Shown: piece by piece, positions 780 through 6,606 of the stretch
Numbering within the stretch: position 1 is the stretch's first letter
Layout of the letters: every line of letters starts with the position of its first letter
Virus record (IMG/VR): IMGVR_UViG_2671180805_000011
Direction: 5' to 3' (one strand)
DNA length: 6,830 bases
DNA from: a virus
Taxonomy: Duplodnaviria; Heunggongvirae; Uroviricota; Caudoviricetes
Program-made: the position numbers and the translations under genes
The notes under the pieces: generated by a model
What the model saw: the letters and a program-made list of their open reading frames with translations, nothing else
Databases searched by the model: none
Told to the model about the DNA's origin: nothing

Positions 780-810
780 ATCAATATAAACAGCCCCTCC
801 GGAGAGGGGC
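780..810 (-). terminator. Hairpin GCCCCTC-CGGA-GAGGGGC (793-810) with U-rich tail on the minus strand
   Basis: Perfect 7-bp GC-rich stem; minus-strand downstream sequence UGUUUAUAUUGAUUUU. An imperfect copy sits at 2981-2997 at the same boundary of the conserved segment. Confidence 0.35.
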
Positions 811-1036
811 TGGAGAGTGGCGCTATGTGCCATTGCATGGTGCCGGGTGCCTCCCGGTGAATTCAGTACCAGCACCTGAATCCGCGATTATCCCATATAC
901 CTACTCGCTGATTGCCCCTCCGCACAGGGGGATTCACCATGCCAGTTTCTTTTAACAAACTCCCCGCAAACCAGACAACAGTCAACCGCCTGAATTGTGA
1001 AGTATTTAAAAATTTCTCCCGCTAACTGATACCCGG

Positions 1037-1123
1037 CTAACAGTCTGGCGTTTTCTTTTTCAGCAACGGGAAAGCAACAACCACCACACCCGCCACCAGC
1101 ACACCGTCAGCCAGCACTGACAT
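1037..1123 (-). CDS. Candidate 28-aa hydrophobic micropeptide (MSVLADGVLVAGVVVVAFPLLKKKTPDC)
   Basis: My own translation of the minus strand; below the ORF-track size cutoff. Single predicted membrane-like helix followed by KKK; no convincing Shine-Dalgarno. Second identical copy at 5806-5892. Confidence 0.15.
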   Translation of the reverse strand: MSVLADGVLVAGVVVVAFPLLKKKTPDC

Positions 1124-1203
1124 TATCCGGCTGCTGCAATGCCATTCACAAAAACAGTAAGCAATCACTTTTTACCGTAACAGGTGATAATCCAGATATG
1201 TAT

Positions 1204-1557
1204 CTACCCCAGATGAGTAATCCGAAGTTCATCCATACCACAGGTCCTGGCTATTCTGTTGTACTCCTGAACAAGAGCAAATAATTCTGAATTAGCAACC
1301 ATGAACTCATCGCAAACCCTCTGTATAGCATCACTATTCAGAATAATAACGTCTCTTCCCGAAAGACGATCAGGAGTACAGAACAAAACTGTCAAACGGC
1401 TGAAGGCCTTTGCTCGTGCTGCATTGACTATATCAATACGCTGCCTAAGGATGAAACACCCCGACGCCTCATCAATATTCACTCTACCCACACCATATGA
1501 ATGATAAATATTTAATGCTGAAAAAACCATTAGACCGTATAACAAACACTCAATCAA
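1204..1557 (-). CDS. Hypothetical protein (117 aa from TTG; 108 aa from first ATG at 1530), unknown function
   Basis: ORF track; sits directly downstream of tRNA-Arg(UCU), the slot stxA occupies in Stx phages. Promoter-like TTGTCA-16-TAAGTA upstream on the minus strand (about 1590-1563). Weak RBS, AT-rich; an antisense 67-aa ORF (1301-1504) overlaps. Confidence 0.3.
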   Translation of the reverse strand: MIECLLYGLMVFSALNIYHSYGVGRVNIDEASGCFILRQRIDIVNAARAKAFSRLTVLFCTPDRLSGRDVIILNSDAIQRVCDEFMVANSELFALVQEYNRIARTCGMDELRITHLG

Positions 1558-1667
1558 TACTTAACAGAACTTTTATTTTTGACAAACATAAAATATTTTC
1601 AACAATATCCTGAGCCAGGTATATTTCAGTATAAGGCTCTGCCGGAAGGAATCTGGAAGAATGAATA

Positions 1668-1744
1668 TGGCGCGCTGTACTGGATTCGAACCAGTGACCG
1701 ATTGCTTAGAAGGCAATTGCTCTGTCCGGCTGAGCTAACAACGC
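1668..1744 (-). tRNA. argO: tRNA-Arg (anticodon UCU)
   Basis: Reverse complement folds as a cloverleaf: acceptor GCGTTGT/ACAGCGC (one G-U pair), anticodon loop CUUCUAA, T-loop TTCGAAT, 3' CCA. One SNP relative to the copy at 3235-3311. Confidence 0.8.
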
Positions 1745-1757
1745 TGAATACCGATAA

Positions 1758-1823
1758 TGGACCGCCATCGGGGACCCGCCCCCGCACCAACAACCCTGTT
1801 ATCGTGTCGTCTGCTCTTCCTGA
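1758..1823 (-). pseudogene. 3' portion of an argN-like tRNA variant, truncated at the IS junction
   Basis: Shares the 3' acceptor end TGGACCGCCATCGGGGAC with argN (3325-3342) and matches 6527-6592 of the variant in module C; identity with module C stops at 1823/1824 where IS orfA sequence begins. Confidence 0.45.
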
Positions 1824-2790
1824 ACTTGAGCGAGATATATTAAAAAAAGCAACAGCGTATTTTGCACAGGAGTCGCTGAAAAATACGCGTTAATCGAACA
1901 ATGGCGACAACAATTTCCCATTGAAGCGATGTGTCAGGTATTTGGTGTATCCAGGAGCGGTTATTACAACTGGGTACAGCATGAACCCTCAGACAGAAAA
2001 CAAAGTGATGAGCGGCTAAAACTGGAGATTAAGGTGGCACATATCCGCACTCGCGAAACATATGGAACCCGGCGGCTCCAGACGGAGCTGGCAGAGAATG
2101 GCATCATCGTTGGTCGTGACCGACTGGCACGTCTTCGTAAGGAGCTAAGGCTACGCTGTAAGCAGAAACGCAAGTTCAGAGCGACTACGAACTCGAACCA
2201 CAATCTGCCAGTTGCGCCAAATCTGCTGAACCAGACGTTCGCTCCTACAGCACCAAATCAGGTCTGGGTGGCGGACCTGACGTATGTTGCCACACAGGAG
2301 GGATGGTTGTACCTCGCTGGCATCAAAGATGTTTATACGTGCGAAATTGTCGGCTACGCCATGGGAGAGCGCATGACAAAAGAGCTGACAGGTAAAGCCC
2401 TGTTTATGGCGCTCAGGAGCCAGCGCCCACCTGCCGGGCTAATCCACCACTCTGATCGAGGTTCACAGTACTGCGCATACGATTACCGGGTCATACAGGA
2501 GCAGTCTGGTCTGAAAACATCAATGTCGCGTAAAGGTAACTGTTACGACAACGCTCCGATGGAAAGCTTCTGGGGAACGCTGAAAAATGAGAGCCTGAGC
2601 CACTATCGTTTTAATAACCGGGATGAAGCCATCTCAGTAATACGGGAATACATTGAGATTTTCTACAATCGTCAGCGTCGTCACTCTCGTCTGGGGAATA
2701 TCTCCCCGGCAGCCTTCAGGGAAAAATATCATCAGATGGCTGCTTAAAAAAAGAACAAATGGTAGTGTCCGCTATTGCCAGTACACCTCA
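1824..2790 (+). mobile_element. 5'-truncated IS3-family insertion sequence (lacks left inverted repeat and most of orfA)
   Basis: Retains orfA C-terminus (...ELERDILKKATAYFAQESLKNTR), slippery run A-AAA-AAA at 1842-1848 for -1 frameshifting, complete OrfB and the right terminal repeat 2758-2790. Only ~967 bp versus ~1.2-1.3 kb for intact family members. Confidence 0.8.
1929..2747 (+). CDS. IS3-family transposase OrfB (DDE integrase catalytic domain)
   Basis: 272-aa ORF with the DDE signature contexts WVADLTY, HSDRGSQY and NAPMESFWGTLKNE; the -1 frame is open from 1830 (KKSNSVFCTGVAEKYALIEQWRQQFPIEAM...), as expected for an OrfAB fusion. Confidence 0.9.
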   Translation: MCQVFGVSRSGYYNWVQHEPSDRKQSDERLKLEIKVAHIRTRETYGTRRLQTELAENGIIVGRDRLARLRKELRLRCKQKRKFRATTNSNHNLPVAPNLLNQTFAPTAPNQVWVADLTYVATQEGWLYLAGIKDVYTCEIVGYAMGERMTKELTGKALFMALRSQRPPAGLIHHSDRGSQYCAYDYRVIQEQSGLKTSMSRKGNCYDNAPMESFWGTLKNESLSHYRFNNRDEAISVIREYIEIFYNRQRRHSRLGNISPAAFREKYHQMAA

Positions 2791-5075: not shown

Positions 5076-5122
5076 GTAGAAACTCTTCTAACGTCAGGCA
5101 TAAAACGCCCATCGTTATGACG

Positions 5123-5150
5123 AATTTACCACAGATTCCGGAAAAATCAA
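5123..5150 (-). promoter_or_regulatory. Late promoter pR'-like (-35 TTGATT, 16-nt spacer, -10 TAAATT), expected site of Q engagement
   Basis: Hexamers read on the minus strand, starting 5 bp after the Q stop; the TAAATT -10 matches my recollection of lambda pR'. Second copy at 6800-6827 with one nearby SNP. Confidence 0.5.
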
Positions 5151-5155
5151 CCTTG

Positions 5156-5644
5156 TTACCTAGTTACCTTTTTTAACTGCCGCTCAGCCCATGCTTCTTC
5201 AATATCAAACCGGGTCACCAGCGCATCATAAAATTTCTTAACTGTTTTTTCCCATGACGCGCGTGTTATCTGGTTTGTCACCTCGCATATAGCATTAAAT
5301 GCCTCCGTTGATGGTAGTCTTTCATAGCCACGACCACCACAACGCTGGCAGTCTCTGATAACAGGCATACCACGTTTTACCGACTCTTCACGATGAATGG
5401 CGACACCACGCCCACGGCAATCCTTACAGGCGGTGGAAACCTCACCCTTTCCGCCACACTCCGGACAGGCAACTTTTACCACCTCCCTGACTTTTTTCCA
5501 TTCTTCCCAGTAAGACGGATACACACCTTTCGTACACTTTGCCCATACCGGCGGCTTACCATCCGGATACTGGAAGGGCTGGAGAGTGGCGCTATGTGCC
5601 ATTGCATGGTGCCGGGTGCCTCCCGGTGAATTCAGTACCAGCAC
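5156..5644 (-). CDS. Q: Lambda-family late antiterminator Q, probably 5'-chimeric or truncated
   Basis: CxxC motifs (CPECGGKG, CKDCRGRG, CQRCGGRG) and C-terminus ...WEKTVKKFYDALV...KVTR match my recollection of lambda Q (...CRDCHGTGR...GRCKGVGY...WSRTVKPLYDALV...AVTR). The track ORF starts at GTG 5644; first ATG is 5603. Codons upstream of 5577 lie in the repeated conserved segment. Confidence 0.7.
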   Translation of the reverse strand: MLVLNSPGGTRHHAMAHSATLQPFQYPDGKPPVWAKCTKGVYPSYWEEWKKVREVVKVACPECGGKGEVSTACKDCRGRGVAIHREESVKRGMPVIRDCQRCGGRGYERLPSTEAFNAICEVTNQITRASWEKTVKKFYDALVTRFDIEEAWAERQLKKVTR

Positions 5645-5972
5645 CTGAATCCGCGATTATCCCATATACCTACTCGCTGATTGCCCCTCCGCACAGGGGG
5701 ATTCACCATGCCAGTTTCTTTTAACAAACTCCCCGCAAACCAGACAACAGTCAACCGCCTGAATTGTGAAGTATTTAAAAATTTCTCCCGCTAACTGATA
5801 CCCGGCTAACAGTCTGGCGTTTTCTTTTTCAGCAACGGGAAAGCAACAACCACCACACCCGCCACCAGCACACCGTCAGCCAGCACTGACATTATCCGGC
5901 TGCTGCAATGCCATTCACAAAAACAGTAAGCAATCACTTTTTACCGTAACAGGTGATAATCCAGATATGTAT

Positions 5973-6326
5973 CTACCCCAGATGAGTAATCCGAAGTTCA
6001 TCCATACCACAGGTCCTGGCTATTCTGTTGTACTCCTGAACAAGAGCAAATAATTCTGAATTAGCAACCATGAACTCATCGCAAACCCTCTGTATAGCAT
6101 CACTATTCAGAATAATAACGTCTCTTCCCGAAAGACGATCAGGAGTACAGAACAAAACTGTCAAACGGCTGAAGGCCTTTGCTCGTGCTGCATTGACTAT
6201 ATCAATACGCTGCCTAAGGATGAAACACCCCGACGCCTCATCAATATTCACTCTACCCACACCATATGAATGATAAATATTTAATGCTGAAAAAACCATT
6301 AGACCGTATAACAAACACTCAATCAA
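5973..6326 (-). CDS. Hypothetical protein, second identical copy of the 1204-1557 ORF
   Basis: ORF-track protein identical to the 1204-1557 product. Confidence 0.3.
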   Translation of the reverse strand: MIECLLYGLMVFSALNIYHSYGVGRVNIDEASGCFILRQRIDIVNAARAKAFSRLTVLFCTPDRLSGRDVIILNSDAIQRVCDEFMVANSELFALVQEYNRIARTCGMDELRITHLG

Positions 6327-6436
6327 TACTTAACAGAACTTTTATTTTTGACAAACATAAAATATTTTCAACAATATCCTGAGCCAGGTATATTTCAGTA
6401 TAAGGCTCTGCCGGAAGGAATCTGGAAGAATGAATA

Positions 6437-6513
6437 TGGCGCGCTGTACTGGATTCGAACCAGTGACCGATTGCTTAGAAGGCAATTGCTCTGTCCGGCT
6501 GAGCTAACAACGC
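6437..6513 (-). tRNA. argO: tRNA-Arg (anticodon UCU), identical to the 1668-1744 copy
   Basis: Same sequence as 1668-1744 at offset 4769. Confidence 0.8.
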
Positions 6514-6526
6514 TGAATACCGATAA

Positions 6527-6606
6527 TGGACCGCCATCGGGGACCCGCCCCCGCACCAACAACCCTGTTATCGTGTCGTCTGCTCTTCCTGATAAGCTAA
6601 TGGCGG
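6527..6606 (-). pseudogene. argN-derived tRNA-like element with replaced anticodon and T-arm region
   Basis: Acceptor stem and D-arm match argN, but the central ~40 nt differ and I could not fold a canonical anticodon stem or 7-nt T-loop; 80 nt long. Confidence 0.4.

Follow-up and report, generated by a model that had tools for sequence, protein, structure and literature searches.

Late regulatory regions of lambdoid prophages

The late regulatory region of lambdoid and Stx-type prophages in E. coli/Shigella comprises the Q antiterminator, PR'/tR', a tRNA cluster of the ileZ-argN-argO type, a moron slot and the lysis genes. In complete prophages of E. coli and S. sonnei, and in Stx-converting phages, the order is Q, terminator, tRNA-Ile2(CAU), tRNA-Arg, tRNA-Arg, STnc100, DUF1737 and holin; STnc100 is a known prophage sRNA (bioRxiv 10.64898/2026.05.13.724894). 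The window considered here, by which is meant the whole 6,830-nt stretch of viral DNA that was analysed, shares this order. Its Q matches PF03589 (E=9.5e-32), RF02076 hits at three places, and there are six tRNAs as well as terminator-like hairpins; the late module is syntenic with an E. coli locus (L001), with loci L002-L021 and with Stx phages. Unlike Stx-type prophages, however, it carries no stx, both of the prophages represented are defective and cut by IS600, and one Q is only a C-terminal fragment.

Judged by sequence comparison, the window is composed of two Shigella sonnei lambdoid prophage remnants, P1 and P2. P1 accounts for Q1, tRNAs, orf108, DUF3927, STnc100 and iraM, and P2 for Q2, orf65, a methylase, tRNAs, STnc100 and IS600. 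The layout is that of P1 with an internal 3.75-kb piece of P2 (Y, 1825-5574), flanked on either side by the same 1,017 nt of P1 (X). The features are as follows.

1..33, + strand: final 33 nt of IS600a, a complete IS600; the full IS600 ends at L012 8613 and truncates the P1 DUF1737 gene
2..160, - strand: N-terminal fragment of the P1 DUF1737 gene (Pfam PF08410, E=9.5e-16)
421..756, + strand: P1 iraM (anti-adapter protein); the exact protein is named IraM in Shigella records, and the annotation of the single-copy E. coli locus L001 gives the gene the same name
782..971, - strand: STnc100 sRNA, first copy (Rfam RF02076, 132 bits), with an intact intrinsic terminator by terminator scan (stem 812-791)
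807..1823, no strand: perfect repeat copy 1, P1 sequence; natural left flank, right joint J1 probably artificial
1037..1168, second copy 5806-5937, - strand: DUF3927 small protein (Pfam PF13064, E=1.7e-27)
1204..1557, second copy 5973-6326, - strand: orf108/117, hypothetical protein without a Pfam family
1668..1744, second copy 6437-6513, P2 allele 3235-3311, - strand: tRNA-Arg(UCU) (ARAGORN and Rfam)
1824..1824, no strand: joint J1, a single A where P1 has T and chromosomal IS600 has C; equals nt 298 of the S. sonnei pINV-plasmid IS600 variant
1825..2790, + strand: IS600b of P2, IS600 nt 299-1264, 5'-truncated; orfB at 1929-2747
2791..5574, - strand: internal P2 segment, STnc100 to the C-terminal part of Q2, matching S. 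sonnei P2 in sequence
3158-2969, - strand: STnc100, P2 copy (Rfam)
3311-3235, - strand: tRNA-Arg UCU, P2 (ARAGORN and Rfam)
3401-3325, - strand: tRNA-Arg UCG, P2
3484-3409, - strand: tRNA-Ile2/Met CAU, P2
4583-3525, - strand: N6/N4 DNA methylase, P2
4931-4734, - strand: orf65, P2
5075-5056, - strand: tR'-like terminator, P2
5572-5156, - strand: C-terminal 138 codons of Q2, a fragment (138/273 aa)
5575..5575, no strand: joint J2, a single A where Q2 has T, Q1 has C and P1 has G; equals the base just before the shared 33-mer in the STnc100 copy of P2
5576..6592, no strand: perfect repeat copy 2, P1 sequence; left joint J2 probably artificial, natural right flank
6593..6830, - strand: natural P1 continuation, with a degenerate tRNA-Arg remnant, tRNA-Ile2/Met CAU (6689-6614), a tR'-like terminator (6752-6733) and the Q1 3' end

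Parentage of the repeats

The original prediction held that 807-1823 and 5576-6592 are identical, unless mismatches between them had been overlooked. Exact extension bore this out, with 0 mismatches across 1,017 nt and identity limits at 806/5575 on the left and 1824/6593 on the right. The window thus contains the two long identical direct copies that a segmental duplication or a RecA substrate calls for, and chance cannot account for a repeat of this kind. The second copy of STnc100 lacks half of its terminator stem and scores 104 bits against RF02076, versus 132 for the first.

Positions 1-1823 plus 6593-6830 match P1 with 0 mismatches in three complete S. sonnei chromosomes (L013, L018 and L021), and 1-1823 is 100% identical to 8581-10403 of S. 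sonnei L012. The intervening 1825-5574 differs from S. sonnei P2 at a single one of 3,750 nt (L003, L004, L005 and L008), and 2790-5574 has 0 mismatches to P2 in L006/L010. In CP104423.1 the two remnants have the same orientation and are separated by about 0.67 Mb. A comparison with related genomes for single-copy versions, which had been proposed as a check, found P1 and P2 separate, canonical and single-copy in every chromosome-scale contig read (37, 33 and 32 contigs per look-up). The orf108 gene occurs at one place per S. sonnei genome, and no third X-like locus that could explain position 1823 was seen in S. sonnei. IS600b is present in 7 of the 10 P2 places shown, that is, in only some S. 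sonnei genomes. As found in the window, at 1825-2790, it is not a complete IS600 with both terminal repeats and orfA/orfB, since it lacks the left end and has a truncated orfA.

P1 and P2 contain homologous blocks of 87-98% identity, and Q1 and Q2 share an identical tract of 343 nt, which may be an old conversion tract. The sequence at 2997-3311, previously taken for a third partial copy of the repeat, is indeed a diverged homologue, but it is not a decayed 1-kb unit. The homology falls into two blocks: 2977-3199 (the STnc100 module) is 96% identical to 789-1012, and 3223-3524 (the tRNA module) is 87% identical to 1655-1823 plus 6593-6729. These blocks are 23 nt apart in the third copy versus 642 nt in the perfect copies, and the 642-nt cassette 1013-1654 (DUF3927 plus orf108) is missing. 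By these alignments the third copy belongs to another prophage, P2, and is its allele of the module.

Joints and breakpoints

The positions of the breakpoints are informative. The 343-nt tract that Q1 and Q2 share without a difference ends on position 5574. A tract of 33 nt that is the same in the STnc100 copies of P1 and P2 opens at 5576, which corresponds to 807. Position 1825 is IS600 nt 299, directly past the last local differences (nt 295 and 298) between chromosomal and pINV IS600, at the start of a 41-nt exact tract (nt 299-339). The last base of the window, 6830, closes a 40-nt tract identical in P1 and P2. Hence three of the four junction sides and the right end of the window coincide with ends of exact-identity tracts between paralogs; by our own estimate from local mismatch density the chance of each such coincidence is roughly 5%, and there are four. 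The orphan bases 1824 and 5575 both equal the base of the paralog at that site, and a search for natural variants in which A follows ...TCCTGA, or precedes S in P1 context, found none. J1 sits in the degenerate tRNA-Arg and adjoins the IS600 fragment. No coinciding repeat boundary was found for the P1 side of J1 (1823), and the IS600 terminal inverted repeats do not account for the left end of the window, 33 nt into IS600.

Independent drafts show related behaviour. Two public S. sonnei draft scaffolds (L026 and L028) end exactly at base 5574 and have P1 and P2 pieces interleaved across N gaps, and in another draft (L052) a joint within this same STnc100 module consists of a single N.

The joints themselves did not turn up by BLAST in 5,426 complete E. 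coli genomes, nor in exact scans of IMG/VR (also with a wildcard at the orphan base), GTDB species representatives and JGI metagenomes; BLAST against phages and plasmids gave no second instance, and neither joint was found in the fetched loci. Exact look-ups of about 20 ORF variants, junction-spanning or truncated, in a collection of 15 billion proteins gave no junction-spanning one, and in a homology search with the fused Q ORF no 90% cluster representative covered the Q fusion. Public data do contain truncated Q variants (122 and 108 aa), but their sources are contig edges or frameshifted Q genes, and they were rejected as instances of the arrangement in the window.

Origin of the X-Y-X arrangement

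Recent duplication, gene conversion between prophages and chimeric assembly had all been offered as origins of the repeat. The sequence evidence favors the last of these, and there is a good likelihood that X-Y-X is a scaffolding or gap-filling artefact of a draft S. sonnei assembly; the repeat is probably not new biology. This preference rests on the breakpoints at paralog tract ends, the draft contig end and the absence of the joints elsewhere. Breakpoints at tract ends, together with drafts ending at 5574, are the behavior of sequence-extension software and not of illegitimate recombination. From the parentage of the segments, the breakpoint positions, the shared draft contig end and the absence of the joints from the collections searched, all of them observed, we infer a software process of the following kind. 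The P1 and P2 late-regulatory regions, both of which adjoin IS600, have short stretches of exact identity to each other in the Q C-terminus, PR'/tR', the tRNAs and STnc100. A P2 contig running from the IS600b interior to the Q2 interior would have been ordered between two P1 contigs, and contig ends would have been extended read by read until reads from the paralog gave a base conflict. Independent extension of both flanking P1 ends across one stretch of unique P1 DNA would write this stretch twice, giving the "perfect repeat", and the joints may then have been closed with one placeholder or wrong-branch base each. Short-read mis-scaffolding matches the window in that pieces end at the far ends of exact repeats (33, 40, 41 and 343 nt) and in the recurrent contig end, interleaved scaffolds and single-N joint of the public drafts. 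It fits less well in that the window contains no N characters and that one of the four junction sides, 1823, as well as the left end of the window, are unexplained by the tract-end rule. Furthermore, chromosomal C should outnumber pINV A at IS600 nt 298, so majority-rule extension would be expected to give C.

A real and very recent duplication-insertion in one S. sonnei strain is considerably less probable, though conceivable. Two routes can be envisioned. Replication or repair synthesis on P1 could have switched template to P2 and then back to a point 1,017 nt behind the departure (MMBIR/FoSTeS-type); or a tandem duplication of about 0.67 Mb could have joined the X end to mid-Q2 (J2), followed by a deletion of about 0.66 Mb joining mid-IS600b to the X start (J1). 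Both routes need P1 and P2 in direct orientation on the chromosome, as they are, and the sequence is gap-free and internally consistent. X copies that are perfectly identical, and a Y identical to P2, also fit a very recent event; it would be younger than the insertion of IS600b, which Y carries and which is found in only part of the S. sonnei genomes. MMBIR/FoSTeS-type or duplication-remodelling events are known to leave junctions that have 0-2 nt of homology and 1-nt insertions, and the window resembles these in its junctions, in its X-Y-X topology and in drawing Y from a distant locus in the same orientation. In addition, Shigella rearrangement rates are reported to be high (PMC8072062, PMC8092226). 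However, nothing in such mechanisms would tie breakpoints to sites where paralogs mismatch: illegitimate breakpoints should ignore the differences between paralogs, yet 5574, 5576, 1825 and the window end fall exactly there. Breakpoint 5574 is moreover a proven draft-contig end, and the nearby microhomologies TCCAG/CTGGA are unused at the joints. A real duplication would also be expected to have joints reproducible in independent genomes, and none were seen in the collections and chromosome-scale contigs examined.

Junction anatomy led us to reject gene conversion, homologous unequal crossing-over, IS600 transposition and tRNA-att integration. Homogenization of two diverged module copies of the resident prophages, by conversion or unequal homologous exchange, could draw on the shared blocks and the 343-nt Q tract, but it is very improbable: homologous exchange leaves joints inside shared blocks, while the 1,017-nt ends abut non-homologous DNA (the Q interior and the IS600 interior). 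That identity stops exactly at these joints argues for one sequence written twice rather than for homogenized paralogs, and the paralogous P2 copy in the window is still 4-13% diverged and without the 642-nt cassette. Transfer of the P2 segment into P1 by IS600 or by a site-specific tRNA-att integrase, suggested by the IS600 fragment at J1 and the location of J1 within the degenerate tRNA-Arg, is more improbable still. At J1 the IS600 breaks off inside the element (nt 299) with orfA truncated, the joint has neither inverted repeat nor short target duplication, there is no integrase, and a "target duplication" of 1,017 nt does not resemble an att site.

The view that perfect repeats of this length are RecA substrates is correct in principle, but is relevant only if X-Y-X exists in a cell. 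Recombination between the X copies would delete 4,769 bp containing the truncated IS600, tRNAs, the methylase, orf65 and the Q fragment. The methylase, Q and IS were thus rightly placed in the excised interval, except that the Q is a C-terminal fragment and the IS is 5'-truncated. This loss would restore the arrangement found in all complete S. sonnei genomes read. A real product would therefore be unstable, with RecA either returning it to canonical P1 or amplifying the unit. It is conceivable, though doubtful, that the window captures a fresh two-junction MMBIR-like template switch, in which 3.75 kb of P2 was copied into P1, as an unstable intermediate before RecA-mediated collapse or amplification. 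If true, this would be a strain-private complex rearrangement between prophage remnants, of modest interest. Inferences about RecA instability, gene dosage (methylase, tRNAs and STnc100) or "recent duplication" need read support, and the locus serves as a caution that scaffolding can create kilobase "perfect repeats" in IS- and prophage-rich Shigella drafts.

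The perfect repeat and the window's two parent prophages

The DNA comes from the late-regulatory region of lambdoid prophages, with nearly all features on the minus strand, and its modules are familiar prophage parts. The sRNA STnc100 is known to be carried on prophages (bioRxiv 10.64898/2026.05.13.724894), and exact protein look-ups found the IS600 ORF2, IraM and methylase products, all named in Shigella sonnei. The CAU tRNA is annotated by RefSeq as tRNA-Ile in a single-copy E. coli locus. The parent elements are two defective lambdoid prophage remnants of S. sonnei, P1 and P2, with Q genes Q1 and Q2.

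Features of the window and of its parents
Six tRNAs: three Arg-UCU, one Arg-UCG and two CAU (ARAGORN and Rfam)
STnc100 sRNA, three copies
Q antiterminator, C-terminal fragment (Pfam)
N6/N4 DNA methylase (Pfam)
DUF3927 (Pfam)
DUF1737 (Pfam)
IS3-family transposase (Pfam)
1823 / A / 1825, joint J1
5574 / A / 5576, joint J2
P1 order: RusA, Q1 (284 aa), PR'/tR', tRNA-Ile2, degenerate tRNA-Arg, tRNA-Arg, orf108, DUF3927, STnc100, iraM (opposite strand), DUF1737' cut by IS600
P2 order: DUF968, RusA, Q2 (273 aa), orf65, methylase, three tRNAs, STnc100, IS600, DUF1737-SASA, holin

The identity of 807-1823 with 5576-6592 holds as originally predicted: both the repeat finder and a script for exact extension give 1,017 nt without mismatch, with identity breaking off at 806/5575 and 1824/6593. 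A third partial copy had been placed at 2997-3311; its divergence holds, but it is two separate blocks rather than one, 2977-3199, which matches 789-1012 at 96% identity, and 3223-3524, which matches 1655-1823 and its continuation at 6593-6729 at 87%. These are spaced by 23 nt, versus 642 nt in the perfect copies.

The 642 nt form a P1 cassette between STnc100 and tRNA-Arg (1013-1654 and 5782-6423) that carries DUF3927 and a 108/117-aa ORF without a Pfam family; P2 has 23 nt (3200-3222) in its place. The cassette is widespread in E. coli and Shigella, single-copy per prophage. The P1 slot of tRNA-Arg(UCG) (1776-1823 and 6545-6600) holds a degenerate remnant called by neither ARAGORN nor Rfam, and the equivalent P2 slot (3325-3401) an intact gene. 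Upstream of iraM, a 21-nt AT-rich direct repeat, CA[C/A]CATC[T/A]GAAAAATAATTCT, occurs twice (170-190 and 324-344), 154 nt apart, with weaker copies within the 1-kb repeat; it is possibly a regulatory site.

Look-ups of the methylase and IraM led to many chromosome-scale S. sonnei contigs on which the two loci belong to distinct, separate prophage remnants; in CP104423.1, P1 and P2 are about 0.67 Mb apart in the same orientation. Three P1 loci (L013, L018, L021) match 1-1823 plus 6593-6830 without mismatch, and 1825-5574 is an internal P2 piece, running from IS600 nt 299 to about codon 135 of Q2, that differs at one of 3,750 nt from each of four P2 loci (L003, L004, L005, L008). The window is therefore P1 with a 3.75-kb P2 insert that has the same 1,017 nt of P1 on each side. 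The native P1 flank is retained to the left of copy 1 and to the right of copy 2; the two remaining ends are the novel joints. Removal of one 4,769-bp unit gives canonical P1 exactly. Of the 10 P2 places shown from complete S. sonnei genomes (L002-L011), 7 have IS600 downstream of the tRNA/STnc100 module; it is missing from strain 53G (L006), L009 and L010, and is therefore a lineage marker.

Anatomy of the joints

Q1 and Q2 (compared as L012 10603-11457 and L003 6607-7428) are 94% identical overall, yet share a difference-free tract of 343 nt at window-equivalent 5232-5574, possibly an old conversion tract. The first difference past it, at 5575 (Q1 C, Q2 T), falls exactly at J2. On the right side of J2, 5576 (equivalent to 807) opens 33 nt over which the STnc100 copies of P1 and P2 do not differ; just before this tract P1 reads G and P2 reads A, and the window carries the A of P2. 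Elsewhere in Q, an 8-nt indel by the stop codon (window-equivalent 5154-5161) extends Q1 into the PR' region.

On the right side of J1, 1825 corresponds to IS600 nt 299. One IMG/VR provirus (L052, IMGVR_UViG_2681813268_000014) carries a variant IS600 that has 19 differences from the chromosomal element, all in nt 60-298, and is identical to it from nt 299 to the end; the variant is therefore a mosaic. The variant recurs at 100% identity over nt 250-340 on S. sonnei pINV plasmids, including CP104427.1, from the strain whose chromosome supplied loci L002 and L012. Locally, the pINV differences fall at nt 295 and 298, then next at nt 340; at nt 298 the variant has A, as does the window. IS600 has at least two forms, the CP104427.1 copy (L053) being 93% identical over its full length. 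In L052 the element occupies the P2 insertion site but adjoins a P1-type cassette.

The window likewise stops, at 6830, on the final base of 40 nt shared exactly by P1 and P2, which differ at the next position. The P1 side of J1 (1823) is the sole junction side without a matching repeat-boundary explanation. By our own estimate, from the 4-7% mismatch density in the alignments, each breakpoint coincidence has a chance of roughly 5%; under random illegitimate breakpoints, it would be very unlikely to see four such coincidences and, in addition, two orphan bases with the paralog allele.

Origin of the arrangement

Neither joint was found in 5,426 complete E. coli genomes, in IMG/VR, GTDB species representatives or JGI metagenomes, or in 63 comparison loci. 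About 20 junction-spanning ORFs and start variants were absent from a 15-billion-protein collection that includes thousands of S. sonnei assemblies, and no cluster representative covered the fused Q N-terminus. Methylase, IraM and orf108 look-ups showed P1 and P2 canonical and apart on every chromosome-scale contig examined, supplying the single-copy versions sought from related genomes. 

Misassembly recurs in the P1/P2 STnc100/tRNA region. Draft S. sonnei scaffolds CXCB01000209 (L026) and CWUI01000229 (L028) both terminate exactly at base 5574, and across N gaps they alternate pieces of P1 with pieces of P2, one instance being the P1-only cassette 1045-1647 within a P2 path; L052 has a single-N joint within the same STnc100 module. 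The chimeric paths in L026, L028 and another public draft (L030) pass from P2 (Q2'-methylase-tRNAs) to P1 (orf108, iraM), crossing via shared STnc100/tRNA blocks.

The original prediction allowed for duplication, gene conversion or chimeric assembly. The last is favored by joints unseen elsewhere and breakpoints at paralog mismatches, and assembly is the most likely source of the perfect repeat. Such breakpoints are expected when an assembler extends read by read, or traverses a graph, and stops where repeat copies first disagree. The coordinates, the parentage and the coincidences are observed; from them we infer that the software placed a P2 contig between two P1 contig ends and extended both ends over one and the same stretch of unique P1 sequence. 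A real, very recent duplication-insertion, by two template switches or by duplication of about 0.67 Mb followed by deletion, is compatible with the topology and with P1 and P2 lying in direct orientation. It leaves unexplained, however, why the breakpoints follow paralog mismatches, and we consider it unlikely. The way the joints are built contradicts gene conversion, homologous unequal exchange, IS600 transposition and tRNA-att integration.

The arrangement is confined to this one sequence and probably artificial, and its interest is accordingly low. Were it real, half of the terminator stem would be missing from the STnc100 copy at 5740-5541, which would read into a Q fragment without a start, and RecA recombination between the direct repeats would bring back the canonical P1 arrangement or amplify the 4.8-kb unit.
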